Source: a virus (taxonomy: Duplodnaviria; Caudoviricetes). Taken from it: a stretch of DNA of 64,000 bases. The position numbers and the translations under genes were made by a program. The stretch lies in IMG/VR virus record IMGVR_UViG_3300021376_000006. One strand, written 5' to 3'. Shown here one piece after another: positions 2,581 to 46,134 of this stretch. A model generated the notes under the pieces. It did not search any database. It had not been told where the DNA came from and was given only the letters and a program-made list of their open reading frames with translations. How positions within the stretch are numbered: the stretch's first letter is position 1; every line of letters begins with the position of its first letter.

Positions 2581-3282
2581 TTAATTTTTAACAGCGGCCA
2601 ATCTTAATGATTGTAATACTCGAATATAAAACCAACCAATATCAAATTCAAACCACCGACGGCTTAAACGAGGACTAGCTGGATCCAAATGATGATTATT
2701 GTGTAATTCCTCGCCGCCAATTAATATACCAATGGGCACGATATTACGACTTTGGTCTCTGGTCTCACCGTTGCGATATCCCCAAAAATGTCCAATACCG
2801 TTAATTACTCCTGCTGCCCAGAAGGGTATCCAGATCATTTGTATACCCCATATTATGGCGCCCACCCAACCGAATAGTAAGATGTTGAACACAAGGAGAA
2901 TAGTAATGCCAAGTCTGGAGTGAGGCGTGTATAACTTATGCTCAATCCAATCATTAGGAGTGCCAACACCGTATGTATTAACCATGTCTTTATCTTTGCT
3001 TGCCTCATGATACAACAATGCTCCTTTAAGTAAAACATGCCAGATACCATAGTGTACTGGACTATGTGGATCTTCTGCTTGTTCGCAAAATCTATGATGC
3101 TTTCTATGAACCGCCACCCACTGTCGAGTGACCATTCCTGTAGTTAACCATAACCAAAAACGCATGGCATGACTGACCATGGGATGAAATTCCACTGCTC
3201 TATGTGCCTGACTGCGATGTAGGTATAGCGTCACACAGTCTATGGTGATGTGTGTGACTAAAAAAGTGTATAGTATGATCAT
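2581..3282 (-). CDS. Membrane fatty acid (delta-9 type) desaturase
   Basis: Three His boxes HRSQAH, HRKHH, HNNHH; hydrophobic segments; FDIGW near C-terminus. Confidence 0.9.
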   Translation of the reverse strand: MIILYTFLVTHITIDCVTLYLHRSQAHRAVEFHPMVSHAMRFWLWLTTGMVTRQWVAVHRKHHRFCEQAEDPHSPVHYGIWHVLLKGALLYHEASKDKDMVNTYGVGTPNDWIEHKLYTPHSRLGITILLVFNILLFGWVGAIIWGIQMIWIPFWAAGVINGIGHFWGYRNGETRDQSRNIVPIGILIGGEELHNNHHLDPASPRLSRRWFEFDIGWFYIRVLQSLRLAAVKN

Positions 3283-3315
3283 GTAATACTTATTAATTTA
3301 CGCTTATCACACAAG

Positions 3316-5700
3316 TTATCCTATATACCAATAAACCCCATCGGACCATACAGGGGCAACATTTGAGCCACCGCCACTGATTGTAGCACCAAAGTTGCCC
3401 GCGGCCGTAATGTTGCCATCTGACACAAAGGCCCTGGCTCCGGACACTGCTGTGAGGCTATCAAATGCCGCAGGAGATGTAATAGTTGTTTTTGCAAAAA
3501 CATTGCTGACAGCTCTTATATTTCCTGTGACCATAAGATTACCTGCCTGCACATTGCCAGTGTAAGTGGTCAAATAGGCAGCGGTATTTGCATTTGCTTG
3601 AGATACTATGTTATTGATATCATTTTGAAGGCTGGCAGCATTGGCATTGGCATATGTTTGATAGGCACTAAGATTAGCAGAAACAAAAGTAGCGGGTGGT
3701 AAAATTACGATGCTTCCAACCATACCGCCGTGTACGGAACATTGATACACGTAGGTGGAACCAACTAAATCAAAAGGAACTTTCCAATATAGTGTTCCAC
3801 TGACTTTTCCTTGGGCACTAGAATCTGTGCTAACAGTTCCATCTGTTGCAACATGAGTCAGACCTGTGTCGTAATTTGAACCACCAGATGATACACGAAT
3901 CATAAACGGGTGACCACTGACACTTAAAGCAAATGATATTGTTTCACCGCCGGTTACATAAATGGTTGGATTACTGCCAGAATATTGGTCAAACAGATAA
4001 CCCGAGGCACCGCTGTTTGTCACACTTAAACGTGAGACAGAAGGCAAGTACATTTGACTAGCTTGAGTGTTTGCATATGACTGATAGGCACCAAGATTTG
4101 CCTGTATAGCAACTACGTTGGCATTTGCAAAAGTTTGATATGCATTGATTGTGTTAATTGATGTTGCTTGTGATGCTGCATTGGCATTACTGAAAGTCTG
4201 GAAGGCACCAAGATTTGCCTGTATAGCAACTACATTGGCATTTGCAAAAGTTTGATATAAACCAATGTTTGCATTGATCAAATTGATACTTGTGGCCTGT
4301 GTGGCTGCATTTGCTGTGAGACTATCTAATGATTGTGCTTGCGTAGCAGCATTTGCAATTAAAGTAGTTAACGAAGTAGCTTGTACTGCGGCATTGGCAT
4401 TTGCAAAAGTTTGATAAGCACCTATATTGGCATTTATACTGTCAATTGCAGCACCTTGTGTGCCTGCGTTGGCCTGCAAGGCAGTTATGTTTGTTGACGC
4501 CGTTCCTAAATTTGCATCTATATTGATAATAGATGCTCCTTGTGCGGCAGCATTGGTGGTCAAACTGTCTAAAAACTGTGCCTGGACAGCGGCGTTACTC
4601 AATAAAGTTGTGATTGAGGTAGCCTGCGCTGCTGCATTGGCATTTGCAAAAGTTTGAAAAGCACCTATGTTTGCATTGATGCTGTCAATTGCGGTGCTTT
4701 GAGCAGCAGCGTTACTAACCAAAACTGTTAAACTAGATTCTTGACTGACTGCATTTGCAAGTAGAACGGTTAAGTTAGCAGCTTGCACTGCGGCGTTGCT
4801 TGTTAACTGTTGTAATTCTAAAGTTTGTGTTACGGCATTTCCCGACAATACATCTAACACACCTTGTTGTACGGCGGCGTTGCTCTGTAAACTAGCGATG
4901 GCCGTATTGGCCGCAGTTACATTGGCATTAACAGAAGTAATTAGACCAGCCTGTGTAGCAGCATTGGCAGTCAGTGCAGTAATTGCACCATTGGCAGCAG
5001 TTACATTTGCATTTACAAGATTTATACTTGTGGCTTGCACTCCAGCATTAGAAAATAAATTATTGATTTCGTTTGTTTGTGCAGCAGCATTGGCATTGGC
5101 ATAAGTCTGATATGCACCCAAATTGGCTTGTATGGATACTACATTTGCATTTGCATAAGTTTGATAGGCACCTAAATTGGCCTGTATGACCAAAACATTG
5201 GCGTTGGCAAAAGTTTGATATGCACCAATATTAGCATTCAAATTATTAATACTGGTTGCCTGCGTGCCTGCGTTGGCATTGCTGTACACCTGGAATGCAC
5301 CAACATTTGCACTAATTGTGTTGATGTTGGCAATCAATTGATCCAGTGTGGCAAATCCGGTATTGGCTGCAAAATTGTTTATTTGAATTTGTTGCGCTGC
5401 TGCGTTGGCTTTTAGACTGGTTATTTCAACATTGGCCGCAGTGATGTTGGCTCTTAGGCTGTCAGTTTGTACATTAGCTGCTGCAACATTGGCATTCACT
5501 GGGCTTAGATTACCCGAGTCATTAATTTGTGTAACATTGGCCAATACATGACCGCCTGCAGTAACACCATCGTGTACCCTGACAGTATCTAAATCTGTAT
5601 CAATGGTAATTTCGCCCACTAACCCAGTATAGGTAGAACTCACACTGGTATTGGCTCTTTTTAATAGTAAGTAGTTTGTTAAAGTTACATTGGCAGTCAT
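3316..5700 (-). CDS. Tail fibre / fibrous virion protein with Asn-Ala-rich repeats
   Basis: Mtd-N-like start (LLKRA...GEITIDTDLDTVRVHDGVTAGG), many GAYQT(F/Y)ANAN repeats, C-terminal YQCSVHGGM domain. Confidence 0.75.
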   Translation of the reverse strand: MTANVTLTNYLLLKRANTSVSSTYTGLVGEITIDTDLDTVRVHDGVTAGGHVLANVTQINDSGNLSPVNANVAAANVQTDSLRANITAANVEITSLKANAAAQQIQINNFAANTGFATLDQLIANINTISANVGAFQVYSNANAGTQATSINNLNANIGAYQTFANANVLVIQANLGAYQTYANANVVSIQANLGAYQTYANANAAAQTNEINNLFSNAGVQATSINLVNANVTAANGAITALTANAATQAGLITSVNANVTAANTAIASLQSNAAVQQGVLDVLSGNAVTQTLELQQLTSNAAVQAANLTVLLANAVSQESSLTVLVSNAAAQSTAIDSINANIGAFQTFANANAAAQATSITTLLSNAAVQAQFLDSLTTNAAAQGASIINIDANLGTASTNITALQANAGTQGAAIDSINANIGAYQTFANANAAVQATSLTTLIANAATQAQSLDSLTANAATQATSINLINANIGLYQTFANANVVAIQANLGAFQTFSNANAASQATSINTINAYQTFANANVVAIQANLGAYQSYANTQASQMYLPSVSRLSVTNSGASGYLFDQYSGSNPTIYVTGGETISFALSVSGHPFMIRVSSGGSNYDTGLTHVATDGTVSTDSSAQGKVSGTLYWKVPFDLVGSTYVYQCSVHGGMVGSIVILPPATFVSANLSAYQTYANANAASLQNDINNIVSQANANTAAYLTTYTGNVQAGNLMVTGNIRAVSNVFAKTTITSPAAFDSLTAVSGARAFVSDGNITAAGNFGATISGGGSNVAPVWSDGVYWYIG
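4086..4257. repeat. Near-identical 55-bp direct repeat (4086-4140 and 4203-4257) in fibre gene
   Basis: AGGCACCAAGATTTGCCTGTATAGCAACTAC(G/A)TTGGCATTTGCAAAAGTTTGATA, one mismatch; more degenerate copies extend to ~5230. Confidence 0.9.
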
Positions 5701-6188
5701 TATATTGTTCCTACATCAATTACAGCATTTGCACTGAAGTTCAACGGATCAGATTCATAGTATGCTGGTAGCACTTCTAAATCCAATGGAACTCCATAAT
5801 TTGCATCTGTATAAAGTGGACGTTCAGTATTGGTCGCCACAGTGATTAACTTTAGTGTTAATTTATAAAATCTTTGATCTAATGCAACTGTTACAGCTCG
5901 AGGAATAGTTACTGTGCCTTGACCTTTGCTGATATCAGTCATTGATACCGTAAAAGCATCAACGGCGCCTTGAATTAAAGGATCCTGTATTTGCATTTGT
6001 ACTTGATATCCGGTCAAATTGACCGGTTTTTGATCTTGATTCAAAATTGAAATTTGTAAGGGATTGTCTATTCCCTGATAGATTTTAATTGGGCGACTGT
6101 ACACGACTCTGTTCCTTGGTGAAAATACAGCAGGATCCCATAATTGGACCGTGACTGTATTCGGATATAAATAAGCTAGAATTTGCAT
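5700..6188 (-). CDS. Probable structural/baseplate-associated protein (BppU-N-like)
   Basis: IKIYQGIDN..ISILNQDQKPVNLTG pattern; adjacent to the fibre gene; late-type motif upstream. Confidence 0.5.
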   Translation of the reverse strand: MQILAYLYPNTVTVQLWDPAVFSPRNRVVYSRPIKIYQGIDNPLQISILNQDQKPVNLTGYQVQMQIQDPLIQGAVDAFTVSMTDISKGQGTVTIPRAVTVALDQRFYKLTLKLITVATNTERPLYTDANYGVPLDLEVLPAYYESDPLNFSANAVIDVGTI

Positions 6189-6208: not shown

Positions 6209-6586
6209 ATGGACGAACCCAACTACCAGCAGTTATTAAAAAAATATCCCTTTTTGACTTACCTTGTATATGGTGGCAATGAATACATAGGCGTTATTCA
6301 AAACCTAGATGAAGTAATTACTACAATTTATGACTACGGTGCGCTTAGAACGCTAGAACAAAAACAACAATTTCTAGAGCTGGCAGAGACTTGGTGGTGG
6401 GAAAGCAACAGGCTGATACCTATCAATGTGTTCTTGAAAACAGAATGGACTCCGTTTAGAACTGTGGTTAAAACAATGAATTCAAAAGATGTGGAAATCA
6501 AGTTCGGCCCGCAAGTGAGCCTAAAAGAAATTGCCGCCAAACGTAGCAAGCGAAGAAGTATTACTCTAGTTAGAAAATTAGGTTAG
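6209..6586 (+). CDS. Hypothetical phage protein
   Basis: Clean ORF divergent from the structural genes; TATAAATA at 6166-6173 upstream. Confidence 0.7.
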   Translation: MDEPNYQQLLKKYPFLTYLVYGGNEYIGVIQNLDEVITTIYDYGALRTLEQKQQFLELAETWWWESNRLIPINVFLKTEWTPFRTVVKTMNSKDVEIKFGPQVSLKEIAAKRSKRRSITLVRKLG

Positions 6587-7209
6587 CTATAACTGTAACT
6601 GATTTGCTCGCATATTAAGTTCATATTAACCGCAACCAGATGTGCATATCCAACTGAATGCGACTTCTTGAAGTAGTAGCTGTCATCTGCAGGACGCTTC
6701 CAGACTGACTCTGCAACTTCCTGCCATGTTCTACCAATCAAATGACGCTTGGCTGGACGTATCACTGCAAGAAACATAGCCAATCTAGGAATACTATCAA
6801 CGGGCTCGGGCATTTTTGCTAGTGTATCGTAATGTGAACCAATGTGTATTAGTTGACTACAAAAATCTCTGGCCTGTAATAAATCCCACAAGGGCTCTTG
6901 ATTCATTAACTCCTGTAAATGCTGATCATTTTTAATTTGTTGATATAACCCAACATTAAGAATATCTAATTTGATGTACCCTCGTTGTTCGGCAGCTTCA
7001 TAGTCTAAACTTGCGCGACCAGTGTAAGGATCTACAGGAATATCTGTGAAGTAAACACCTGTATTGTGTTTTGTGATTTTTTCGTCGCGTACAATACTTG
7101 CGGCTATGTGTTTCAAGCAAGACAATGCTTGATCTCTATCAGCTACATCAATGTCGATATCACTGGAAAATTTCATAGTCCAGCTTCCTTTAGCACATGT
7201 CTGCACCAT
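6583..7209 (-). CDS. Miniature DnaE (Pol III alpha)-like protein, palm/fingers core only
   Basis: SDIDIDV, H.TGVYF, GYIKLDILNV, FKKSHSVGYA correspond to DnaE PDIDxD, H..G, KxDxLGL, FNKSHxxxYA. Confidence 0.75.
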   Translation of the reverse strand: MVQTCAKGSWTMKFSSDIDIDVADRDQALSCLKHIAASIVRDEKITKHNTGVYFTDIPVDPYTGRASLDYEAAEQRGYIKLDILNVGLYQQIKNDQHLQELMNQEPLWDLLQARDFCSQLIHIGSHYDTLAKMPEPVDSIPRLAMFLAVIRPAKRHLIGRTWQEVAESVWKRPADDSYYFKKSHSVGYAHLVAVNMNLICEQISYSYS

Positions 7210-9203: not shown

Positions 9204-10654
9204 TGCCATTCTGCCTTTTCTACAGTGAAAGGATAATTAGCCTCTTTATAAAAAGTTTTGCGTTTTGTTAAATGTCGTTTTGCGAACTTACAGGTGGAGG
9301 TGATGTCCCAGATTTGAACAAAGTCCTTATCTTCTGCTCGACGTATGCCCCGCCCAATGCTTTGTATAACTCTAATAAAAGACTTCCCAGGCTCAATAAG
9401 AACAAGATTAAAAATACGGGGAATATTAATACCAACTGCTGCGACGCCGTAAGTAGCGATGATGATTTTGTTTGTTGCCTCTGCCACTTCGTCATAGTGC
9501 TCTTTGCGCTCCCCGGCTTTAGTCGCCCCAGAAACAAACACACTGCCTGGTAGTCGTTTGGCTAATGCCCGTCCGGCGCTGATACGATCTACCAATATAA
9601 GTGTGTTGCCCGAATCAACTATAGTACTTATCAAACGACCAATATAGTCAAGTCTTTCAGCAGTTTCTATTAGATATTTTAGTTCGCTTTGATAGTTGTT
9701 ATATTCTTTGTGGTCCACTAACTGTACCACATTGACATGACACTGAGCCAAGTGTCCGGCTTCTTGTAGTTCGCTGGCGCTTAGTTGTCCTACTACAGGA
9801 CCCAGCATGCAGTTGATGCTTTGTCTTGCGTAATCTTCTTTGGGTATGGTACCAGTCAAGCCCCAACGTATAGGAACCTGTGCAAACGGTCCGCTCAGTA
9901 GTGCTTTTAATGCATCGGCTTTGGCCTGATGTACCTCGTCTACTATAACTGCTACTACACCCTCCAAGAACTCGCCTATAGTGATATCAGCCTCGGCGTT
10001 ATTGGTCGTCTTTAATAAATTGTTTAAGCTTTGCCAAGTACATATAGTATGTGTTCTATTGTATTCTTTTCTATCTCCAAAATACACACCGGTATCTAAT
10101 TCAAGATTAACAAAATCATCTTCTGTCTGTGTCACTAAACTTTTGTTAGGCACAATAACTATTGTACGCCCATACTGGCTCACAGAATCTGCCAGTGCTG
10201 CTGTGATGATAGTTTTACCGGCACCGGTGGCTACTTCCTGCACACACTGTGGATTGGCCAAAAATCTATTGATAATTTCTGGTTGATAGTCTCGTAGTAC
10301 TATAGGTTGGCCAGCCTTTGGATGATTTTGGGGCCACTGTTTGTGTTGATAAGTGTTTTCATCTACCGGAACAAATTCAAACGTGGTGCGATACTGTCTT
10401 GTATCCTCTACCTCAACATCGTAGCCTTGTTCATCAAGATAGGGCAGGATCTCTGGCAACAAGTTGATGTAAGTGGTGCCGCCAAGATTGAAGAAAGGAA
10501 CCTTGCCATCCCAGCGTCCAAGTTTTACACTGGGTTGATAACGAGCGCCCGGTATTTCATATTTGTATCGTTTTACTAAGGCTGTCCTTGTGTTAAGTTC
10601 AAGGCCTTCAATTTTTACATTGACTTCGTCTTTGATTAATAATCGAGCCTGCAT
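9200..10654 (-). CDS. uvsW: SF2 DNA helicase, UvsW-like
   Basis: LRDYQ Q-motif, ATGAGKT, VDEVH, GLTGT, QSIGRGIR. Confidence 0.9.
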   Translation of the reverse strand: MQARLLIKDEVNVKIEGLELNTRTALVKRYKYEIPGARYQPSVKLGRWDGKVPFFNLGGTTYINLLPEILPYLDEQGYDVEVEDTRQYRTTFEFVPVDENTYQHKQWPQNHPKAGQPIVLRDYQPEIINRFLANPQCVQEVATGAGKTIITAALADSVSQYGRTIVIVPNKSLVTQTEDDFVNLELDTGVYFGDRKEYNRTHTICTWQSLNNLLKTTNNAEADITIGEFLEGVVAVIVDEVHQAKADALKALLSGPFAQVPIRWGLTGTIPKEDYARQSINCMLGPVVGQLSASELQEAGHLAQCHVNVVQLVDHKEYNNYQSELKYLIETAERLDYIGRLISTIVDSGNTLILVDRISAGRALAKRLPGSVFVSGATKAGERKEHYDEVAEATNKIIIATYGVAAVGINIPRIFNLVLIEPGKSFIRVIQSIGRGIRRAEDKDFVQIWDITSTCKFAKRHLTKRKTFYKEANYPFTVEKAEWQ

Positions 10655-11805
10655 TAGTTTTTACGCTTCATAGTTGCAACATTATACACTTCTGTAGCAA
10701 AGTATACAACCTTTTCTGCTCGTTGTAACAAAATAGTTTTGTCACCGCCATGCATCATGCCTTGGCCACTAATCAATAACGGTATAGGTTCATCCCAAAG
10801 TGCAGTAAACTTGTTGAAGTAAACAACTTTTTTGTCAGTGATAAGATCTTTTTGTTTTAAACTTTGTGTCCGATAAATATCATCTTTATCAAAGCATTTA
10901 GCTACAAAATTGTTATACAGTCTTTCGCTCATGTCGGGTTCATAAACATAGATAGGATATCTGCCAACTGTGTCTGCGTACCGGACAAGATCTTGAAACA
11001 CAGTCTCATCACTGGTGGGTGCAAACTTGGTTTCTTGAGTAGTCATAAGATTGGCCACACGTGGTCCGTACTTGGAAACAATGTCTAAAACAAGCGGCTC
11101 ATCCACTGTGTAACCGTATACAGCACTACGATCAATCAAATGCTCTAAATTAGTCCAGTCGTTGACAGCTTCAATCAAGGTACGAGCGGCGTTTGTGATA
11201 GTGTAACTTTCTTTAGTGTCCGCGATCAATTTGATTTCATATTGTTGTGATTCACAGTCTTCAACTGCCCGTATGTAACGTTCGAATTCTGGTGCAAGTT
11301 CAAACTTGTGATTTTGTGCAAAGCCGTTGGCCGCTACCACATTCATTTCAGTCAAAGCCAATGCCCAGCTGCGATTTTGGCTATCAAATTTCCAACTGCC
11401 TTGGCTGACCATGGCCAAGTCTCTCAAGTCATTTATTAGTGTAGTATCGTACGGAAACTTTAACATAATGCTGTTGTTATCGATGTACAAAAGTCTACGT
11501 CGATCAATTTGTCTTATGCCCAATCTAAACGTAGGAGTTTCAACAGGACTAACATCAACCAAATGAGCAGCCAACTGTTTGCGATATTTGAGCACAATCT
11601 TGACTGCCAACTCTGCCTGTTTGTCTGTTAAAGCTCGCCCGCTTTGTGTAGCCTGACTCATGCTGTCTAAGATTTTAACATCGTATCTGGCAAGGCTAAT
11701 TATGGGCGGACGGCTATCAAACAAGCCGTACAACTTGCCAGTCACAATATCACGATCACCATTGATAACTTCGATATAATCTTCAACTGACGGAAATTTT
11801 TTCAT
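10654..11805 (-). CDS. Hypothetical protein with HARP-like segment
   Basis: LKFPYDTTLINDLR...WKFDSQNRSW resembles the HARP consensus; start refined to MKKFPS. Confidence 0.5.
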   Translation of the reverse strand: MKKFPSVEDYIEVINGDRDIVTGKLYGLFDSRPPIISLARYDVKILDSMSQATQSGRALTDKQAELAVKIVLKYRKQLAAHLVDVSPVETPTFRLGIRQIDRRRLLYIDNNSIMLKFPYDTTLINDLRDLAMVSQGSWKFDSQNRSWALALTEMNVVAANGFAQNHKFELAPEFERYIRAVEDCESQQYEIKLIADTKESYTITNAARTLIEAVNDWTNLEHLIDRSAVYGYTVDEPLVLDIVSKYGPRVANLMTTQETKFAPTSDETVFQDLVRYADTVGRYPIYVYEPDMSERLYNNFVAKCFDKDDIYRTQSLKQKDLITDKKVVYFNKFTALWDEPIPLLISGQGMMHGGDKTILLQRAEKVVYFATEVYNVATMKRKN

Positions 11806-11838
11806 AGTGTAAGTGTAATACTTATAAATGTAAAAGTC

Positions 11839-11862
11839 AAAAAAACCCCCGCCTAAGCGGGG
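11839..11862 (-). terminator. Rho-independent terminator
   Basis: CCCCGC-TTAG-GCGGGG hairpin followed by G and T7, downstream of the AAA ATPase gene. Confidence 0.8.
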
Positions 11863-11909
11863 CAAAGAACCGGAGTAAAAGGAGCTATCAAAAACCCCGG
11901 GCGATCTGC

Positions 11910-12947
11910 TTACGCAGATTTCATACAGGTTGATTGTGCAAGTGCCACCCACTTGGTAGGAAAACTCTTGTACAGCTGACCAATTTTTATAGCCATACGC
12001 AAGCTCATTTCACGTAGACTGTTCTTGTTAACGTTCATAAATTCAATGATCTCGTCCTGTGCAATATCACCAAGTTCAAGATCCGCAAACAGTTCACCAG
12101 AGCGAGCGATTTGGCGGATACGCAAGATCTTGTCGCGCATGGTGTCTAGTGTAAGGTCCAAGTAATGGCAGCGTGATTGCAGTGCATCCAAGTGATCACG
12201 CAGTTTCTGGCTCTTCATTTTGTCGAACTTGAGGTTAGTAATAAAGATAACCGAACCTTTAAATTCAAAACTGTTAGGAATACCTTCGTCACGCAAGATA
12301 CGCGATTCTGCGATCCATGATATCTTACGTTTCTTACCCGAGTCTAGAGCACCTTTAAGCAAGTTAAGGCACACATCATCAAGTAAAATACTGTCGCAGT
12401 CGTCGAACACAACCACGCAGTTTGGATCCGAATACTTGTATAAGGCTTGATACAAGCCGATAGCAGTGGCCGAACCTTTTACTACTTCGGCTCTAAGACG
12501 ACGGCCCGCGATTTGGTCGAACAAGCACGCCTTTTCAATCTCGGCTTCTACGCCATAACTCTTGCCCACACCCGGAGGACCGCTTACGATCATAGCACGG
12601 ATGTCACCGGTAGTAGCAGCCTTAGTCATCTCTGTCAGAATCTCAAAACGCCCGGCAATCTCAGCCATACGCTCTTCATCCGACTTCGAATCATTCACTA
12701 CGGCAGCAACATCTGTATCCATTGCCACCACTTGGCCATCAAACTCATCGGAACTCACGAACTCGTAATCACTCATGCTATTAACTTTGACACGGATATC
12801 TTCTGGGAAGCCAGGGAATTGGCCACCGTTCTTGACTGTGACATAGCCACCTTTGGCACCGGCCTTGTATTGTTCTACAAGTTGGAACACACGGTTGGAT
12901 ACATCGGTGGTGCGATATGCACCGGATCGAATTCTTACGAAACTCAT
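11910..12947 (-). CDS. AAA-family ATPase
   Basis: GPPGVGKS, VVFDDCD, IFITN; AGGAG RBS before MSFVR. Confidence 0.8.
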   Translation of the reverse strand: MSFVRIRSGAYRTTDVSNRVFQLVEQYKAGAKGGYVTVKNGGQFPGFPEDIRVKVNSMSDYEFVSSDEFDGQVVAMDTDVAAVVNDSKSDEERMAEIAGRFEILTEMTKAATTGDIRAMIVSGPPGVGKSYGVEAEIEKACLFDQIAGRRLRAEVVKGSATAIGLYQALYKYSDPNCVVVFDDCDSILLDDVCLNLLKGALDSGKKRKISWIAESRILRDEGIPNSFEFKGSVIFITNLKFDKMKSQKLRDHLDALQSRCHYLDLTLDTMRDKILRIRQIARSGELFADLELGDIAQDEIIEFMNVNKNSLREMSLRMAIKIGQLYKSFPTKWVALAQSTCMKSA

Positions 12948-12988
12948 AACAGCTCCTGTAGTTGATGTTGTATTGTTATTATTCAAGT

Positions 12989-13017
12989 ATTATACGAAAA
13001 AACGGAATTAGTGTCAA
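12989..13017 (-). promoter_or_regulatory. Consensus sigma70 promoter
   Basis: TTGACA-17-TATAAT exact. Confidence 0.9.
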
Positions 13018-13257: not shown

Positions 13258-13286
13258 ATTATAGCAAAATGGTAAATTATGGTCAA
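13258..13286 (-). promoter_or_regulatory. Sigma70 promoter
   Basis: TTGACC-17-TATAAT. Confidence 0.8.
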
Positions 13287-14855: not shown

Positions 14856-14884
14856 AGTATATATTGTATAGTCAAGCTTGTCAA
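14856..14884 (-). promoter_or_regulatory. Sigma70 promoter of sgaA
   Basis: TTGACA-17-TATACT; AGGAGG RBS before ATG. Confidence 0.85.
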
Positions 14885-14888
14885 TTTT

Positions 14889-15107
14889 TTATTTTAAAAC
14901 TTTTCGAGTAAACCGCCAAATTGGACCAATTTCAGGATGATTACGATCACCGCCTACAGCTAGTTGTGCATCTAACGGAGCACCATAACTGTAATAATTT
15001 ACATAATCGGCAATTTTTCTGTTACGAGTTCTAATCAAACAAAGTCCCGCATCGTTGGTAACCATGAAGTGGGATATTCCGTCGTCATCTCGGTCAATGA
15101 AGAGCAT
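14889..15107 (-). CDS. Hypothetical protein
   Basis: ATAAATA motif 4 nt upstream of ATG. Confidence 0.6.
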   Translation of the reverse strand: MLFIDRDDDGISHFMVTNDAGLCLIRTRNRKIADYVNYYSYGAPLDAQLAVGGDRNHPEIGPIWRFTRKVLK

Positions 15108-15511
15108 ACCATATTTATTGCCTGGTCAATTTGATCAACAGGCACACCATTTTGTTCGTAACCTTCGCGTACCATTTCTAAATAGCCCACACCAGGTTGT
15201 TGTAAGTAGGTTTGATCCGTCATTTGATAAGTTATTGCAAAGACAAAACTTTTGCCGGTGTTGACTTTTACAAGAAATCTAGTGTAATAATATGGATACC
15301 CTTCGAGGGTATCAAGAGCTTGTAAATCTTGCATGGATATATCCCAAAGCACCCCATGGCAGATATTGCCCGGTGATCGGGCAATATCTGCATGAGTACG
15401 AAATACCAATTCATGATCGTCAATCCAAGCAGGTCCAACACATTCGGCCGTTGGACAGCGTCGATTCATTTCATCCTTATTGGTATTCATCCCATAAGCA
15501 AAGTATTTCAT
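15035..15511 (-). CDS. Gamma-glutamylcyclotransferase family protein
   Basis: YFAYGMN, GVLW, ALDTLEGYP; ATGA overlap with upstream gene. Confidence 0.85.
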   Translation of the reverse strand: MKYFAYGMNTNKDEMNRRCPTAECVGPAWIDDHELVFRTHADIARSPGNICHGVLWDISMQDLQALDTLEGYPYYYTRFLVKVNTGKSFVFAITYQMTDQTYLQQPGVGYLEMVREGYEQNGVPVDQIDQAINMVCSSLTEMTTEYPTSWLPTMRDFV

Positions 15512-16074
15512 ACTGGTATTCCAAAATGTTGATAATGTTTTTCCAGAGTCCACGCATGTAAATCATTTATTGATTGTCCATTATAGGTTTCAATTTCTGT
15601 AGTAAACACTTGAGTGTATCTATCAAAAAAATGATACACACTGGGTGTTTTACTAGCCCAGCCTGCTTTTTTTAAAGCCACATGATTTACTTTTTTAATC
15701 AGACAGGTCGGCGGATTCATTGCTTGAATAACAGTGAGCACGCCTTGAATCAGCATATCGCGAATTACTTTTTGTGGTATCACGTGCTCAAAGTCGTAGT
15801 CCTTTTTTTGTAAACCTTTTTCTCGATAGTGAGCTTTTATGTTACCGGCAATATTATAATCATGCGATCGCCTCAACGCATCATCAATTCGATCTCGAAC
15901 CAGTCTGGCTGTTTGATTCATTTCTGTCAACCCGCTATACTCTTTGAGTAAACGAGTCAGTTCACGACTTATTGACTCCGTGGTTTGATCATAAGCACCT
16001 TGATCTCTTTTGACCTTGCGATATTCTACGGGTTGGTAAGATTCAACCAGTGACTGAAATTTGGATTTAGCCAT
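15508..16074 (-). CDS. Putative HNH / His-Me finger nuclease (DUF1524-like)
   Basis: YDFEHVIPQ followed by NPPTCLI and NH. Confidence 0.5.
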   Translation of the reverse strand: MAKSKFQSLVESYQPVEYRKVKRDQGAYDQTTESISRELTRLLKEYSGLTEMNQTARLVRDRIDDALRRSHDYNIAGNIKAHYREKGLQKKDYDFEHVIPQKVIRDMLIQGVLTVIQAMNPPTCLIKKVNHVALKKAGWASKTPSVYHFFDRYTQVFTTEIETYNGQSINDLHAWTLEKHYQHFGIPV

Positions 16075-16075
16075 A

Positions 16076-17239
16076 TTATGCCTTCATCTCCATAAACTTT
16101 TTGCCTTCGATTGTTGTGCCGTTTTGTATTGCAAAAAAAGTCTTGTCGGCGCCCGTTAATTTAAAACAGTCTATGGACACTTGTGGGATAAGATTTGGTT
16201 CGCACCAGGTCTTACCCAGTACACCGATGTCTAAGTTTTCACTAGGTATTGCTAATTTACCACCGTTAATAAGGTACACTTCTCGCATAAACTTAAACAT
16301 TCCTTGCGGGGCAGACCAAGCACTGCCAACAAAAAAGTCCCATTGACGCTTGGCAGCGGTATGGCAGTCGTGACTAGACGAAAAACTTACTGCACAAGTT
16401 TCAGTGATATCCTGCATCCAATTCTTTGGCATCTTTTTGTTTAAACTTTTAACAATACTGTTCATATAATAGAGTCCAATAAACACGCCCTGATCAATTT
16501 CTTGATCAGCTGGCCAAGCAATTGTGATTGCGTCAAGAATTTGTCGAGTAGTAGCAGCCGTTTTATCAACGCTGGCAGATTTGTAGGCATAGTCAAAATG
16601 ACTAAACCAATAATCGTTGATGTTTCTGGCTTTGGTTGATTCAATTAATTGTACACGGGCATTATCAAATGCATCTTGTAGATTTCGAGCCAGTTCAGTT
16701 TCCTGCGTGCTCAAACCCAGCTTGTGTTGATACAACCAGTTTTGGTGCAGGTCTGGTTTTCCAACTTTCTTGATACCACTGTGGTTGTTGATGATAAACG
16801 CAACTGAAGGAAACGCAAGATCTTCGGTATCGTTAATAATAACCGGAACTTTAGTGTAGCCTAGTAGGCTTAACAAAACGCAACGGTGCTGACCATTATA
16901 TGCAAACAACTTGTCTTGACGCCAAGGTTCTTTTGTTAGGGCCTTGCCTATAAAGTTGGCGGTAGCAGCAGGTTCAATAATTCTAATATCAAATTTTTTA
17001 ATGATGTCAATCAAGTGCTTGATAATAACGTTGCGTTGAACTTCATAGTCCAACCAAACGTTATTAACATCTTCATAATGCATGCCTCGTGCAAAATTCA
17101 AATTTAGAGCAGTCATTCTTGCTCTAATTTGCTGCATCATTGAATTAAATTGCTTGTCTGAAAGTTTGAGGGCCGCTTTGATGTCACGACGAGCGTCGTT
17201 AACAACATCAATCAGTGGCCGCGATACCCGGGCTGACAT
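16076..17239 (-). CDS. ParB/Srx-superfamily protein (DUF262/DndB-like, DGQHR type)
   Basis: Ordered motifs EVQRNV, YNGQHR, AFIINN. Confidence 0.65.
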   Translation of the reverse strand: MSARVSRPLIDVVNDARRDIKAALKLSDKQFNSMMQQIRARMTALNLNFARGMHYEDVNNVWLDYEVQRNVIIKHLIDIIKKFDIRIIEPAATANFIGKALTKEPWRQDKLFAYNGQHRCVLLSLLGYTKVPVIINDTEDLAFPSVAFIINNHSGIKKVGKPDLHQNWLYQHKLGLSTQETELARNLQDAFDNARVQLIESTKARNINDYWFSHFDYAYKSASVDKTAATTRQILDAITIAWPADQEIDQGVFIGLYYMNSIVKSLNKKMPKNWMQDITETCAVSFSSSHDCHTAAKRQWDFFVGSAWSAPQGMFKFMREVYLINGGKLAIPSENLDIGVLGKTWCEPNLIPQVSIDCFKLTGADKTFFAIQNGTTIEGKKFMEMKA

Positions 17240-17290
17240 GATGGTAATTCTCCAATTGTAAATAGTAACTGGAATTAGTTACTGAATCTT

Positions 17291-17319
17291 AGTATATGCA
17301 AAATATAGTTATGTGTCAA
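17291..17319 (-). promoter_or_regulatory. Sigma70 promoter of the ParB-like/HNH/GGCT operon
   Basis: TTGACA-17-TATACT; GGAG RBS. Confidence 0.85.
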
Positions 17320-18110
17320 CCCGTGTATTTGCCAAAAGTTTGTTGCAATTTTGTTAAGTCTGCACAGGTATACTTTTGATAGCTATGCGCTAGATGTTCA
17401 GGAAAAGGTATTATCTGAATCAGTGCTCCATATTGATTGGCTTTGTCTCGCGCAATGTCGGCGAATGATTGTGCTTGTCCTGTACCAATGTTCCATACAC
17501 CGTTTTCATCAATTTTGCGCCGGACAAATTCGTATTGAACATCTAACAAACGCTCAACAGGAACAAAGTCTCTTTGAAAATGGTCGCTGCCTTCGAATAT
17601 TTTTATAATACCAGTGGATTGAGCTTGTACAGCAAACTGATAGTGCGGGCTGGCTTGATTACCTTTATGGGTTTCGTTCGCACCATATACATTAAAGTAT
17701 CTAAATCCCTGGCACCGAACATGCGTCGGATGGTGTTCGATGTAGTGTTCGAATAGATATTTACTCCATGCGTATGGACTTCTAGGATCAACTGGTGCGG
17801 TCTCTGTAAAGTCTCGGCCCATGCCATACACGCTAGCCGAGCTGCTCCATTGAAGATTGACATCATGTCGTCTGCACTCCTCATATAGCCAAACGCTAAA
17901 GTCATAATTCTGACGCATCACTTTGTCAACATCACGCTCAGTGGTACTGCTTATGGCTCCAAAATGAAAAACCCAATCCAGGCCTTCGATACGCGGTAAT
18001 AGATTTTCGTCCCATTCGTATGTGACAATTTCATGGCCGCCAATTTTATGCCAACGACTTACAGCGTGGCTACCAATAAAGCCTCTACTTCCGGTTATTA
18101 ATATTTTCAA
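17316..18110 (-). CDS. hldD: ADP-L-glycero-D-manno-heptose 6-epimerase
   Basis: GSRGFIG, FHFGAISSTTERD, SSSASVYG, YAWSK, FRYFNVYG, KYTCADLTKL. Confidence 0.85.
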   Translation of the reverse strand: MKILITGSRGFIGSHAVSRWHKIGGHEIVTYEWDENLLPRIEGLDWVFHFGAISSTTERDVDKVMRQNYDFSVWLYEECRRHDVNLQWSSSASVYGMGRDFTETAPVDPRSPYAWSKYLFEHYIEHHPTHVRCQGFRYFNVYGANETHKGNQASPHYQFAVQAQSTGIIKIFEGSDHFQRDFVPVERLLDVQYEFVRRKIDENGVWNIGTGQAQSFADIARDKANQYGALIQIIPFPEHLAHSYQKYTCADLTKLQQTFGKYTG

Positions 18111-36213: not shown

Positions 36214-36676
36214 CTTCTTTCCAAGTATAATCACCTAACCATTTTACCTGAGCAATATAGCTGTAATGCTCGGGTGGTCCAGTGGTCCATTCTTTAGGCC
36301 CTTGATGGCATAATCTAGTACGATTTATTTTGCTATCAAAACACAACCAATATGTTTGTCCGTGATAGATTTGAAATTGATATTCAGCTGCATGTACTGC
36401 ATCTGTGATATACAATCTACGTTTGATATCATCTGCTTGTTTTTGTAACACTCTCACCAGGTCCATGATACGATTGTATTCTTGCTCGGCATGCATACGA
36501 GCAACATTGACCATGATGTCTTTTTGTTTTTCTATGGGTATTAAATCAAAGGCAGGACCACCTACTTCGGTGGCGTAAGGAGTGATGTTTTTATTAAAAA
36601 AGGCGACTAATTCGCCGCCTATTTCTGCATCGTAACTGTCTTTGCCTTTGGCAACGTTACTTTTTTTCTTGGCCAT
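36182..36676 (-). CDS. DUF2452-like hypothetical protein
   Basis: PYATEVGGPAF, EYNRIM, G.TYWL, P.EW pattern. Confidence 0.6.
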   Translation of the reverse strand: MAKKKSNVAKGKDSYDAEIGGELVAFFNKNITPYATEVGGPAFDLIPIEKQKDIMVNVARMHAEQEYNRIMDLVRVLQKQADDIKRRLYITDAVHAAEYQFQIYHGQTYWLCFDSKINRTRLCHQGPKEWTTGPPEHYSYIAQVKWLGDYTWKEVTTQTYDDST

Positions 36677-37010
36677 CTGAGGTCTTGATAATTACCGGGC
36701 TTTCAGATTCTGGGGCAGGATTTCTTGTATTTTTTAACAACCAAGCACCATAGTTGATAAATGCTGCAAATGGATAAAATGCTATTGCTAATGAGGCAGC
36801 AACTATAATACCTGCAGTTAGAAAAATTACACTTAAAAGTGTAAACACTGTTTCTAACATTAGATTCCAAAATCCTGCTACTCCGATATCTAATTCAAAG
36901 TGCTTGGCGCAACCAGAGTTATGTGATCTAATGTGCGTTCTAAATGATTCAATTTGTTCTATGCAACGCATTACTAAAATTTGCAACAATCCTCGATACA
37001 AATCAGTCAT
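36657..37010 (-). CDS. Hypothetical membrane protein (start uncertain)
   Basis: Hydrophobic C-terminal half; packed between neighbours. Confidence 0.45.
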   Translation of the reverse strand: MTDLYRGLLQILVMRCIEQIESFRTHIRSHNSGCAKHFELDIGVAGFWNLMLETVFTLLSVIFLTAGIIVAASLAIAFYPFAAFINYGAWLLKNTRNPAPESESPVIIKTSDGQEKK

Positions 37011-41001: not shown

Positions 41002-42175
41002 TATCAAGCCAGTCAACAAAGTGTTTGGGATAGGTATCTAGTATACTAATGTTTCTTCTTTTTGTAAATTCTTTCACAAAGGTTTTTAGATTTTGCAGTT
41101 GTGACATAGTGGGATCAGGTTGTAAACTTTCAATTATGTGCTTTGACCAAGGCAAAGGATTGTTTTCAAATAATTTGATTATATCACTTTTGCTTTTTGG
41201 ATCCATTACATACGGCGACATAAAATCTGGCTTGTAAACAAAATCGTATTCTTTTTTAGACTCGGAAAAATATTCCAAAAATTCATGATACCCAAATAAA
41301 CTTAAATTACTCAAAGTTGAATGAAACATGTAATCAATTTGAAATTGATTTAGTATATCAAGTTTGGCTTTATACTGATCCCAAATTATACCATATCTAT
41401 TAAATTCTAAATATGATCCTATGTTCTCACAACTGAGTTTTATAATTACGTTTTTATATTTTTGTAGTTTTGATAAAAATTTTTCGAATCTACTGATACT
41501 TAGACCTAATCCACTAAACACCTTTACTTCAGATACACCACTAAGTGAATCTAGAATGTCAAACAAATTATTGTTTAATAAAGATTCTCCACCTGTGATA
41601 TATACGGTTTGTAGATGAGGCGTCATTAATTCTATTTCTTTAAGAATCAATTTATAATGTTTAGTATTGTTTTTTTTAGATTGAGATAGTTTATGAATGA
41701 TGAGATCTTTAGAGTCTATTTGATACCTATCATCATCGATCGTGACCGGATAGTTACCATTATTTAAAATGTCTTTTCTCCATGCACTGCTGTATTCTTT
41801 TGTACAATAGCTGCATGACAAATTACAATCGCTTCCTAATGTTATATCTACAATTTTAGGATGTGTAATTGTATCAAAATGTGTTTTTTCATAACCTTTT
41901 CGAATAATTCTTGGACTAATAGCGCCAACATCTTCTGCCTTGAAGCAATTATTTTCGCAACTGTGATTTCGCGTGTTAGATAACATCATTCCACGTTCGT
42001 TAACGTTTAATGGCGTATTAAATAGCTGTCCTGGATTAAGTTCTATCCAATTTAAATCAACATGTTGCGGGTAAGCAGCGTCACAATTGTAAATAACTCT
42101 CTTTTCAATGTCAATTTTTATGCATTGAAATTTATAATTACAGTAATAGTCTCTGATGTGAGTATTATTCCTCAT
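40991..42175 (-). CDS. Radical SAM protein with N-terminal twitch-like Cys segment
   Basis: CNLSCSYC, TGGESLL. Confidence 0.8.
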   Translation of the reverse strand: MRNNTHIRDYYCNYKFQCIKIDIEKRVIYNCDAAYPQHVDLNWIELNPGQLFNTPLNVNERGMMLSNTRNHSCENNCFKAEDVGAISPRIIRKGYEKTHFDTITHPKIVDITLGSDCNLSCSYCTKEYSSAWRKDILNNGNYPVTIDDDRYQIDSKDLIIHKLSQSKKNNTKHYKLILKEIELMTPHLQTVYITGGESLLNNNLFDILDSLSGVSEVKVFSGLGLSISRFEKFLSKLQKYKNVIIKLSCENIGSYLEFNRYGIIWDQYKAKLDILNQFQIDYMFHSTLSNLSLFGYHEFLEYFSESKKEYDFVYKPDFMSPYVMDPKSKSDIIKLFENNPLPWSKHIIESLQPDPTMSQLQNLKTFVKEFTKRRNISILDTYPKHFVDWLDNVV

Positions 42176-43450: not shown

Positions 43451-44453
43451 GATTATTTTCCTTTATTTTAATAAAATTATCTATGCTTATGTTTCTGATC
43501 TTGTCCTGCTCTTCAATAAATGTGTTTAAAAATAAACTATTATCGTCGCCTGTTGCAACCAAATTATCAAATTCTGGTAAAGAATTTTTGGCAGCAATTG
43601 TAAATTGATTTCTATGTTGAACACTTAGCTCCGCTGGATAATGAAGTAATCCATATGACATTGGAATATTAACCTCGCGTGAGAATTCTTTAATCCTTGA
43701 AAAATCATTTACATTTAACACACTCAAAGTAGTCCAAATGTTCAATTTTAAATTTTCAAATTTTGTTTGTAAATTTTTATACTTTTGTATAACTTCAAGT
43801 GTTGTTGCCCATTTTAAAGGCCATCTAGTATATTCAAATACCTTTTCTACACCGTCAATACTAAACGTTATAGTTATTTCAATGTTTTTTTCTAATAGAT
43901 TCTCTATTTCTGGCATAAATTTGCTTGCGTTTGTGTTTATTCGTATAAACTTGGCATGCTTTAATGACATCAATTTTTCTTTATACAACTTACTAAATGT
44001 TGGTTCTCCACCGGTTATTTCAAAAACTAAAATCTTGTCTGCTGATATTTGATTGAAAATGTTTGAATTATCTATTTTTATTACAGTCTTGGATAACTTT
44101 CCAATGTAAGTGCTATTTTTATTTGAACAACTTATGCATGCTGAATTACAAACATTATCGAGTATTCCCGAAACAAACAAATAATCTGGATTTAATTGTA
44201 TATATTTTGTATGCGCTTCAACCGAATGTTCTCTCACACTCTTTTGATGATTAGTATTTTCTACTTCTTTACAACGCTTACATTCGTCTGGCCACTCATT
44301 GTTAGTAAACTTATTAAGGGTGTTTTTTAACCAAGAACTATTTCGTAAATTTTCAATACTATTAAATGATGGCGCATTTATCATATGACCACATACCTGA
44401 AACATTGAATTTTCAGCTAGTCTTATATTATGCGTTAATCTAGGACAAAACAT
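43431..44453 (-). CDS. Radical SAM protein
   Basis: CNSACISC, TGGEPT, INTNAS, SIDG, YTRWPLKW. Confidence 0.8.
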   Translation of the reverse strand: MFCPRLTHNIRLAENSMFQVCGHMINAPSFNSIENLRNSSWLKNTLNKFTNNEWPDECKRCKEVENTNHQKSVREHSVEAHTKYIQLNPDYLFVSGILDNVCNSACISCSNKNSTYIGKLSKTVIKIDNSNIFNQISADKILVFEITGGEPTFSKLYKEKLMSLKHAKFIRINTNASKFMPEIENLLEKNIEITITFSIDGVEKVFEYTRWPLKWATTLEVIQKYKNLQTKFENLKLNIWTTLSVLNVNDFSRIKEFSREVNIPMSYGLLHYPAELSVQHRNQFTIAAKNSLPEFDNLVATGDDNSLFLNTFIEEQDKIRNISIDNFIKIKENNHGNQTL

Positions 44454-45082
44454 TATTGTATTAAATCAATTAGCGATAAAGGTATATTGATAATATCATA
44501 ATAGCCACTATCTTTATCATTTTTTATGATAGTCATTATTTCTTGAAAAGTTAATTTATTTCCTATCTGATTATAAAGTATAGTATCTAATTGCAAATAA
44601 AGATCTTGTGCGATTTGATAATCTACATTTATTCCGTTAGCTTTCCGTGGAGTTTCATTTAATGAAGTTATTTTTTTCAAATACTGCATTGATCGGAAAT
44701 GAAATTTAACTTCAGGTTTTATGAAGCGTGACAAATTCAGTATCCAATGAAATTGCGGAATATAGTGAATATCCAGGTACAAGTATTTTTTCAATAAAAA
44801 CTCAATGGTGTTAGAATCTAACTCTGGATTTTGAGTTTTAAGATTAAAAATTACTGTTGCCAATCCTGACTGGAATCTTTCAATTGGATCTCTTAAAATC
44901 ACAGTAATGTCATCAGAAATACTATGTAAATCAGAATGATAAAGTTGCATTCCACTCACATTTTGACAGTGACGAAGTAAACTGCTTGATCCATTTTTAT
45001 ATATAGGAAAAATATACTCTTTCCCTATTTTGACAACTGTAATGTTATCAGAATACAAAAATTTATCTATTGGTGTAAACAT
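44453..45082 (-). CDS. Sulfotransferase-family-like protein
   Basis: PIYKNGSSSL (5'-PSB-like), LRDPIERFQSG (3'-PB-like), DIHYIPQ. Confidence 0.65.
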   Translation of the reverse strand: MFTPIDKFLYSDNITVVKIGKEYIFPIYKNGSSSLLRHCQNVSGMQLYHSDLHSISDDITVILRDPIERFQSGLATVIFNLKTQNPELDSNTIEFLLKKYLYLDIHYIPQFHWILNLSRFIKPEVKFHFRSMQYLKKITSLNETPRKANGINVDYQIAQDLYLQLDTILYNQIGNKLTFQEIMTIIKNDKDSGYYDIINIPLSLIDLIQ

Positions 45083-45126
45083 AATCCGAAAGGGTACGCA
45101 AGAATTACGTACCCTTTTTATCTAAC

Positions 45127-46134
45127 TTACTGTTTGCTGCGATTACGAATCATGGCCAAGATGTCCTCGGCTCGTTGACTGGAAGGTTTAGTAGCAGCGG
45201 CTTGCACAGGTGCAGTGGCTACAGGAGGAGCATCATCTTCTTCATCATCGCCAACAAAGGAACTAGAAGATTGTACTGGTGCAGGTGCTGCTTTGACTAC
45301 TGGTGCAGACGCTGTTGTTTCTGTATCGTCGTTACCGCCTTTACCCTGGAATCCGCTAGGCTTAAAGTATTGGCTCCAACGATCAGGATCGTATGCTTGA
45401 CCATCCACCGACGCTTCAAACATTTCTTTGATAACCTTGAGTTCTACCTCACCAGGACGCCTGGGTAGGAAGTCACTTAGATTGTAAAGACCAAAGCTAT
45501 CAATCGCACTTTGTTCTTGTGCTGTCAGTGCAGTCTCTTTTCGGCTCCACTTACTGGTGCTGTAGTCTGCATAGCCACCTTTGCTAGTTTTTGTAACAGT
45601 AAAATCTAAACCGGCGGTGTAATCGGTTGGCATGCTTTCTAGTTCTGGGTCCATTAGTGCAGCCTTGATCAAATTAAAAATCTGGGGACTAATAACGAAT
45701 CTACGAATAGGATTCTCAGGTGTTTTGTCGTCCGCTAGTGGATTTTCTCTTACAAAACCTTGGAACAGGTATGATTTCTTTTTCCAGTACTTACGACCCA
45801 TTTCTTCCAGGCCTGGATCTTTGAACCATGTTCTTACTTCGGCCAAGACAGGACATGCGTCACCATACATTTCTACGCAAGGAACTTGTACCACAACAGG
45901 TTTTGAGTCTGCTTGTCCTTTGATTCCTGCGAACGGAAGTTTGATCATCAATCGTTCGACCCAGAAGAATGAGTTCTGTGTATTAGCGTCTGGTAGAAAA
46001 CGGATTTTTGCACTTGAGCCTTCTGGAATGTTCCAGTGTGCATAGATGGCGTTGTCGCCTTGTGATTGACCGCCCGATTGACGGTTTTCTTGCGCTTGTA
46101 GTTTAGCGCGAATTTCTGCTAGTGATGTGGCCAT
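45127..46134 (-). CDS. ssDNA-binding protein, T4 gp32-like
   Basis: IRFLPD, C...C, KYWKK, NPIRRF, D...G.DF, acidic tail. Confidence 0.88.
   Translation of the reverse strand: MATSLAEIRAKLQAQENRQSGGQSQGDNAIYAHWNIPEGSSAKIRFLPDANTQNSFFWVERLMIKLPFAGIKGQADSKPVVVQVPCVEMYGDACPVLAEVRTWFKDPGLEEMGRKYWKKKSYLFQGFVRENPLADDKTPENPIRRFVISPQIFNLIKAALMDPELESMPTDYTAGLDFTVTKTSKGGYADYSTSKWSRKETALTAQEQSAIDSFGLYNLSDFLPRRPGEVELKVIKEMFEASVDGQAYDPDRWSQYFKPSGFQGKGGNDDTETTASAPVVKAAPAPVQSSSSFVGDDEEDDAPPVATAPVQAAATKPSSQRAEDILAMIRNRSKQ

Follow-up and report, generated by a model that had tools for sequence, protein, structure and literature searches.

What kind of enzyme, if any, is encoded by a pair of phage genes whose motifs recall a bacterial anti-phage nuclease? 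The question is raised by genes A and B of IMG/VR virus record IMGVR_UViG_3300021376_000006 (Duplodnaviria; Caudoviricetes), a stretch of 64,000 nucleotides (nt), referred to here at its full length as the window, which is contained in about 20 lake-water metagenome runs; no RNA run was listed among the sequencing runs containing it. Gene A (16076-17239, minus strand) is an open reading frame (ORF) of 387 amino acids that ends in TAA. The ATG of gene B (15508-16074, minus strand, 188 amino acids) follows 1 nt after this stop codon, and the TGA of gene B in turn overlaps, as ATGA, the start codon of a GGCT/AIG2-like gene (15035-15511, minus strand, 158 amino acids; PF06094, E = 1e-11; phrog_2520, E = 1e-23). 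The pair is headed by a sigma-70-type early promoter, TTGACA-17-TATACT (17291-17319, minus strand; 11 of 12 consensus positions), whose -35 hexamer overlaps the stop codon of an upstream NAD-dependent epimerase gene. A preliminary description, made from the letters of the sequence, had read the pair as resembling a split form of GmrSD, the nucleotide-dependent type IV restriction enzyme that combines DUF262 and DUF1524 and cleaves modified DNA. Every element of the layout that it claimed, from the two ORFs and the 1-nt gap to the ATGA overlap and the promoter, was present, and the window is indeed phage DNA, encoding a large terminase, a primase, a DnaB-like helicase, a second helicase, and tail and lysis proteins.

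The reading that we favor, with about even confidence, takes A-B to be a mobile accessory cassette that large aquatic phages express early and that encodes a two-component nuclease regulated by nucleoside triphosphate (NTP), likely directed against host or rival DNA. Its design logic appears analogous to that of GmrSD, BrxU and SspE, but in sequence families that no GmrSD model recognizes.

A and B are an obligate pair carried by an accessory cassette

A and B form an obligate, co-diverging pair amid varying surroundings. The family was surveyed in 87 loci from IMG/VR and other metagenome contigs, and residue conservation was read from 88 copies of A and 87 intact copies of B. Some of the surveyed carriers are genomes as large as 317-374 kb, of which two have terminal repeats. 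All 87 loci had B downstream of A on the same strand, the outcome of the neighborhood survey that the preliminary description had proposed. The pairwise identities of A and B were correlated (Mantel r = 0.89, with 0 of 999 permutations as high), and this co-divergence spans 23-100% identity. Every other neighbor family was confined to 23 or fewer of the 87 loci; at most 14 loci had the same neighbor immediately upstream, and at most 7 the same neighbor immediately downstream. A predicted complex of A and B scored 0.29 against a mark of 0.32, a value that weighs neither for nor against binding.

The junction between the two genes is itself a site of insertion. An insert of 350-560 bp lies exactly between A and B in about 40 of the 87 loci (for example, at L024:5061-5546, L067:4607-5101, L025:5062-5544 and L029:5038-5625, with about 35 further loci), and the small genes inside these inserts are unrelated, among them an HNH_3 gene (E = 2e-6) and a T5orf172/MUG113-type (GIY-YIG-like) gene. 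The inserts are probably free-standing homing endonuclease genes landing at a conserved junction. Comparison of a B profile with the HNH_3-type and other inserted genes by hhalign revealed no relation.

Comparison with close relatives revealed that the pair is gained or lost together with its promoter. The terminase of the relative IMGVR_UViG_3300017917_002350 is 92% identical to that of the window, and over 57 kb the two sequences are collinear, with a nucleotide identity of about 76%. Missing from this relative are window positions 17337-15513, exactly the promoter plus A plus B. The cassette as delimited by blastn collinearity and reading of the junctions thus occupies 15513-17337 on the minus strand. 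At the empty site of this relative, the epimerase gene is followed by a different promoter, TTGACA-17-TATAGT, and then directly by the start codon of the GGCT gene. A second relative (L008), whose A is 88% identical, carries the cassette at the same site as the window. Because the collinear relative keeps the GGCT gene without A-B, the GGCT gene is only a neighbor and A-B is accessory rather than core. The GGCT gene is probably co-transcribed with A-B in this window, and the coupling reported in the preliminary description is real as far as the ATGA overlap goes; it is local, however, as the gene downstream of B differs in most loci. The idea that A-B is a core gene pair was rejected: 12 contigs with a related terminase were without A in a search whose positive control worked, and one of these is the contig that is collinear across the empty site.

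The association with a promoter extends across the family, in agreement with the earlier claim that the pair has a promoter of its own. Of 72 non-redundant loci, 51 (71%) have, in the 150 nt upstream of A, a sigma-70 promoter that agrees with the consensus at 11 or more of its 12 positions, and 17 of these 51 promoters agree with it perfectly. The same level was reached by only 5% of random windows drawn from these loci. No significant leader hairpin was detected after the promoter of gene A in the window (z = -0.9). In T4-type phages, promoter-flanked cassettes (PeSL) are shuffled in hyperplastic regions (PMC2839356, PMC4122927). The A-B cassette resembles these elements in that a near-consensus early promoter heads accessory genes that are gained, lost and shuffled among close relatives, here as a clean insertion or deletion of promoter, A and B; it differs in that no conserved stem-loop or terminator was established as the partner of its promoter.

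The A-B family is large and essentially confined to phages. A single-sequence search with A found 54 relatives and a profile search at least 874 protein clusters, none of them named, and the family occupies at least 212 IMG/VR loci in genomes of up to 374 kb. One scan of 185,579 species-representative genomes recovered the family on only 5 short contigs of metagenome-assembled genomes. Among 50,697 records of cultured phages, neither B nor three distant relatives of B had a match by blastn or tblastn, and the only homologue of A was XYS97711.1 of Sinorhizobium phage Phosso (gene 557; hhalign probability 97%, E = 6e-11, 185 columns), a protein with a weak DUF6551 match. This homologue carries DGQHT where A has DGQHR, and the gene located 2 nt downstream of it encodes a hypothetical protein of 268 amino acids that is not B-like (hhalign probability 0.1%; genes 557-558, L180:2734-4513). 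In Phosso, this 268-amino-acid protein may act as a different effector paired with the same ParB-like scaffold.

Predicted folds of the two proteins and their likeness to GmrSD

The AlphaFold model of protein A (predicted local distance difference test [pLDDT] of 85) consists of an N-terminal helical hairpin, a ParB/sulfiredoxin (Srx) domain (residues ~50-160), a helical domain (~160-335) that the model positions like the DNA-binding domain of ParB, and a variable C-terminal tail of low model confidence. Foldseek comparison of this model with the PDB returned Noc, ParB, KorB and sulfiredoxin, with probabilities of 0.97-1.0 for the top ParB-family rows, and comparison with AFDB returned clusters named ParB/Sulfiredoxin at E values of 2e-6 to 1e-4, as well as one DGQHR-named cluster at rank 28. 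We are confident in the assignment of the modeled protein to the ParB/sulfiredoxin fold. Within the ParB/Srx domain lie DYEVQR, NGQHR and FPSVAFIINN, corresponding to the QR, DGQHR and FxxxN motifs that had been noted in this order in the preliminary description. The conservation of these motifs over 88 copies of A is not due to chance: QR and F..S.AF...N are each invariant (88 of 88), and in D[AG]QHR the Q and R are present in 88 of 88 copies while the H position is occupied by H in 84 and by Q in 4.

The closest named family to A is DUF6551 (PF20188), which accounts for 62 of the best 100 language-model matches and is also close in shape (template modeling [TM] score of 0.54-0.59 by query and 0.67-0.68 by hit). 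ParB_N comes next, and a GmrSD_N cluster turns up once. DUF6551 is, like A, phage-borne, but its hidden Markov model (HMM) matches the A family only below the cut-off of 26.8 bits (7 of 26 members, with E = 0.037 at best) and recovered nothing at the A locus when genomes were scanned. To our knowledge, no HNH-like partner has been described for DUF6551. The TIGR03187 (DndB/DGQHR) HMM matched 3 of the 26 members weakly (best E = 0.039). Profile searches of solved structures with three family profiles (A1, A2 and A5) produced nothing meaningful, and no meaningful match for A or B was found among Pfam, PHROG, PADLOC or NCBIfam models. Phage ParB-fold proteins with DUF6551 have been found experimentally to bind CTP or ATP (PMC12704722). 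By its motifs and predicted fold, A likely binds a nucleoside triphosphate in a pocket formed by QR, D[AG]QHR and FxxxN.

The AlphaFold2 model of protein B (pLDDT of 95) begins with an Arg-rich helical hairpin (residues 25-76) that is followed by a predicted beta-beta-alpha core. This core comprises strands 83-85 and 93-97, the latter ending in E96-H97, a short helical insert, strand 123-127 after N120, and helix 128-136 with H131; the conserved residues R152-Y153 and H180 lie downstream. The core of His-Me finger nucleases is a beta-beta-alpha-metal fold in which the catalytic His ends strand 1 and a metal-binding H, N or D lies in the helix, and both the predicted secondary structure of B and its conserved E-H, N120 and H/D131 fit this arrangement. 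The E, H and P of EHxxP are each found in 87 of 87 intact copies, N120 is found in 85 of 87, and at position 131, 56 copies have H and 31 have D. H97, R152, Y153 and H180 never vary among 67 sequences of the wider B family, whose identities reach as low as about 17%.

Structural neighbors of B were largely named as nucleases. The top AFDB cluster was annotated as "HNH endonuclease" (E = 3e-4, probability 1.0), and 4 of 7 non-self rows among Atlas neighbors were HNH families (PF01844, PF13391 and AI2M-like HNH), with TM scores of 0.34-0.37 by query and up to 0.54 by hit. The EHVIP motif singled out in the preliminary description is present in B as an instance of EHxxP, and HNH-like structural neighbors were recovered. 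We consider it probable, with fairly good confidence, that the modeled B has a His-Me nuclease fold. A word search identified 47 relatives of B, and clustering at 50% gave 150 representatives, none of them named. Distant relatives of B lie on short contigs, where their contexts are uninformative, and the gene before one of these relatives is an EcsC gene and not a ParB-like one; a search for loci related to the remote relative P0238 found none.

The relation of the pair to GmrSD is one of design analogy, not homology, because the GmrSD_N and GmrSD_C models detect neither protein. PF03235 (DUF262/GmrSD_N) matched neither A nor 25 of its relatives at E ≤ 1, and PF07510 (DUF1524/GmrSD_C) matched neither B nor 34 distant relatives. 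When five carrier genomes that were 92-100% complete were scanned, neither model matched at the A or B loci at E ≤ 10; in 14 control genomes, PF03235 was detected in 9 and PF07510 in 6. A fused A-B protein was absent from those searches whose length range would have covered one. What survives of the split-GmrSD interpretation is the ParB/Srx fold, EHxxP, the pairing and the promoter; homology to GmrSD is not supported, A being nearest to DUF6551 and ParB_N.

The analogy itself extends to several systems. ParB/Srx-fold NTPases coupled to HNH nucleases constitute a group of bacterial anti-phage enzymes that includes GmrSD, BrxU, SspE and TgvAB. A-B appears to share with these, and with GmrS plus GmrD as separate proteins, the combination of a ParB/Srx-fold NTP-binding module with a His-Me (HNH-type) module. 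The order of motifs is also alike, with QR, DGQ(Q/H)R and FxxxN in the first part and (E/D)HxxP(Q) in the second (PMC4619093). In GmrSD, a near-invariant DGQQR is flanked by QR and FxxxN (PMC4619093), whereas the A family has D[AG]QHR, the DGQHR/DndB-type variant. The first GmrD motif is (I/L/V)(E/D)H(I/L/V)xPQ, which FEHVIPQ of B fits except for Phe in place of the first aliphatic residue, and the further GmrD motifs are L(G/A)NLxLLxxxN and NxxFxxKK (PMC4619093). The second and third motifs are loosely paralleled in B, with other spacing (A-M-N-P-P-T-C-L...N-H-x-x-L-K-K), but LGNLxLLxxxN is not clearly present. Like A and B, the two genes of Vibrio cholerae TgvAB are adjacent or overlapping; in TgvAB, both are needed (PMC11014532).

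The pair also departs from each of its nearest known counterparts. GmrSD resides in bacterial defense islands, whereas A-B is phage-exclusive and has an early promoter. In comparison with BrxU, A is structurally nearer to ParB, Noc, KorB and DUF6551. With ParB, Noc and KorB, A shares the fold of the N-domain and a P-motif-like strand-GxxR-helix followed by a helical domain. It differs from them in having no ParA partner, no match to PF02195 or HTH_ParB, and only 11-14% identity, and in having a nuclease-like protein as its partner, in jumbo phage genomes of the lytic type.

Possible functions of the pair

Under the reading of A-B as an NTP-regulated nuclease, host RNA polymerase would transcribe the pair early in infection from its own sigma-70-type promoter. 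A would bind NTP in its QR/D[AG]QHR/FxxxN pocket, bind or clamp DNA via its helical domain, and recruit or license B, the putative His-Me (HNH-type) nuclease. The likely use of such an enzyme would be the destruction of host DNA, or of the DNA of a co-infecting rival, early in infection. A more far-reaching version, which we put forward tentatively and regard as rather doubtful, is that of a phage-exclusive restriction weapon in which A, as an NTP-dependent clamp, would scan DNA and license B against host or rival DNA within minutes, while the phage's own DNA would escape, for example, by base modification. As a unit that brings its own promoter, this weapon would pass from one jumbo phage to another, and it would represent a second, independently evolved lineage of ParB-plus-HNH enzymes, viral rather than cellular.

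Several observations weigh against a nuclease licensed by A. Pfam gives B no match and no sequence profile ties B to an HNH family, HNH_4 being touched by just 2 of 35 distant relatives of B (E = 0.016). Conservation of N120 does not extend to the wider B family of 67 sequences, and the invariant R152, Y153 and H180 lie outside the classical HNH motif, which could mean that B has a different chemistry. Searches of solved structures with B (Foldseek PDB, VIA wide and VIA re-ranking) recovered no His-Me match but only helical-hairpin look-alikes, a result that is attributable to the dominance of the helical hairpin in the alignments. Finally, A is closer in structure comparison to the DNA-clamp proteins ParB, Noc and KorB than to BrxU or GmrS, and A could therefore be a regulator rather than the licensor of a nuclease.

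This last point leads to an alternative in which the module is regulatory: A would be a ParB/KorB/Noc-type NTP-dependent clamp or a DndB-like regulator that organizes or silences host or phage DNA, and B would be a non-nucleolytic co-regulator or adaptor. We regard this as unlikely. The most highly conserved residues of B (E96, H97, P100, R152, Y153 and H180) look like an active site and not a binding surface, and the named structural neighbors of B are mostly HNH families. An accessory role in DNA modification appears very improbable to us. In such a role, a DndB/DpdB-like A would aid a modifying enzyme or sense modified DNA, and B would process DNA or nucleotides for the pathway, as might be suggested by the DGQHR motif set of A and the weak TIGR03187 matches. 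However, no modification genes are conserved beside the pair. In addition, five near-complete carrier genomes contained no match to the TGT/DpdA family at E ≤ 0.001, and the pair is thus not tied to 7-deazaguanine modification; an obligate link to this modification found no support in the same result.

The precise presence/absence polymorphism between close relatives, the highly variable contexts of the pair and the HNH-like nature of B are what would be expected of a selfish homing element, and intronless homing is established in T4-type phages. B would then be a homing HNH endonuclease that cuts cassette-less phage genomes, A would be a helper or specificity subunit, and no benefit to the phage would be needed. 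We consider this explanation improbable, since free-standing homing genes are usually single, whereas here both partners keep invariant motifs and co-diverge over the full range of identities surveyed. Moreover, the cassette is found at many different sites and not at one cognate target, and the invasion of the A-B junction by other homing-endonuclease-like genes argues that A-B is a conserved target rather than the invader.

The surrounding region and the meaning of the family

The TTGACA-17-TATACT pattern, with at most one mismatch, occurs four times in the window, always on the minus strand, compared with 0.58 occurrences expected, and no shuffled window reached four. These near-consensus sigma-70 promoters lie at 12989-13017, 13258-13286, 14856-14884 and 17291-17319, and each heads a short unit, the units being an AAA ATPase gene, small ORFs, a class-V aminotransferase gene and A-B. 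Short units headed by promoters are a layout typical of an early, hyperplastic region. An ORF of 72 amino acids (14889-15107, minus strand), read in a different frame from the GGCT gene, overlaps the 3' end of that gene and lies just upstream of the aminotransferase promoter.

An AAA ATPase gene and a DUF2201/VWA-like gene lie a few kilobases downstream of A-B both in the window (10654-12986) and in a distant carrier of 106 kb (L004:7501-10010). In the window, the AAA gene of this pair is a Pfam match and its neighbor of 432 amino acids is putatively DUF2201/VWA-like; the two could be a recurrent neighbor pair of A-B. A gene of 176 amino acids with a DNA_pol3_alpha (PF07733) match lies near A-B in a distant carrier of 208 kb (L001:4044-4574), and it recalls a "mini DnaE" of 208 amino acids in the window (6583-7209). 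This phage group thus appears to conserve a very short DnaE-type gene.

Alignment with the collinear relative revealed further gaps or replacements opposite window positions 3268-6025, 36609-36984, 41002-41749 and 43463-45133 (G001, L168-L171). In the largest of these, near a tail-fiber-like gene of 794 amino acids, about 2.7 kb of the window corresponds to about 7.6 kb of the relative. These differences are other variable cassettes or host-range modules.

A large phage-encoded family thus appears to share the design logic of the bacterial anti-phage enzymes that join ParB/Srx and HNH modules. The A-B family is invisible to Pfam and PADLOC models, and both of its protein families merit domain definition for the annotation of metagenomes. 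If A-B is indeed an NTP-gated nuclease, aquatic jumbo phages would have in it a widespread means of host takeover or of phage-phage warfare, and the pair would offer a tractable two-protein system in which a ParB-type switch controls a nuclease.

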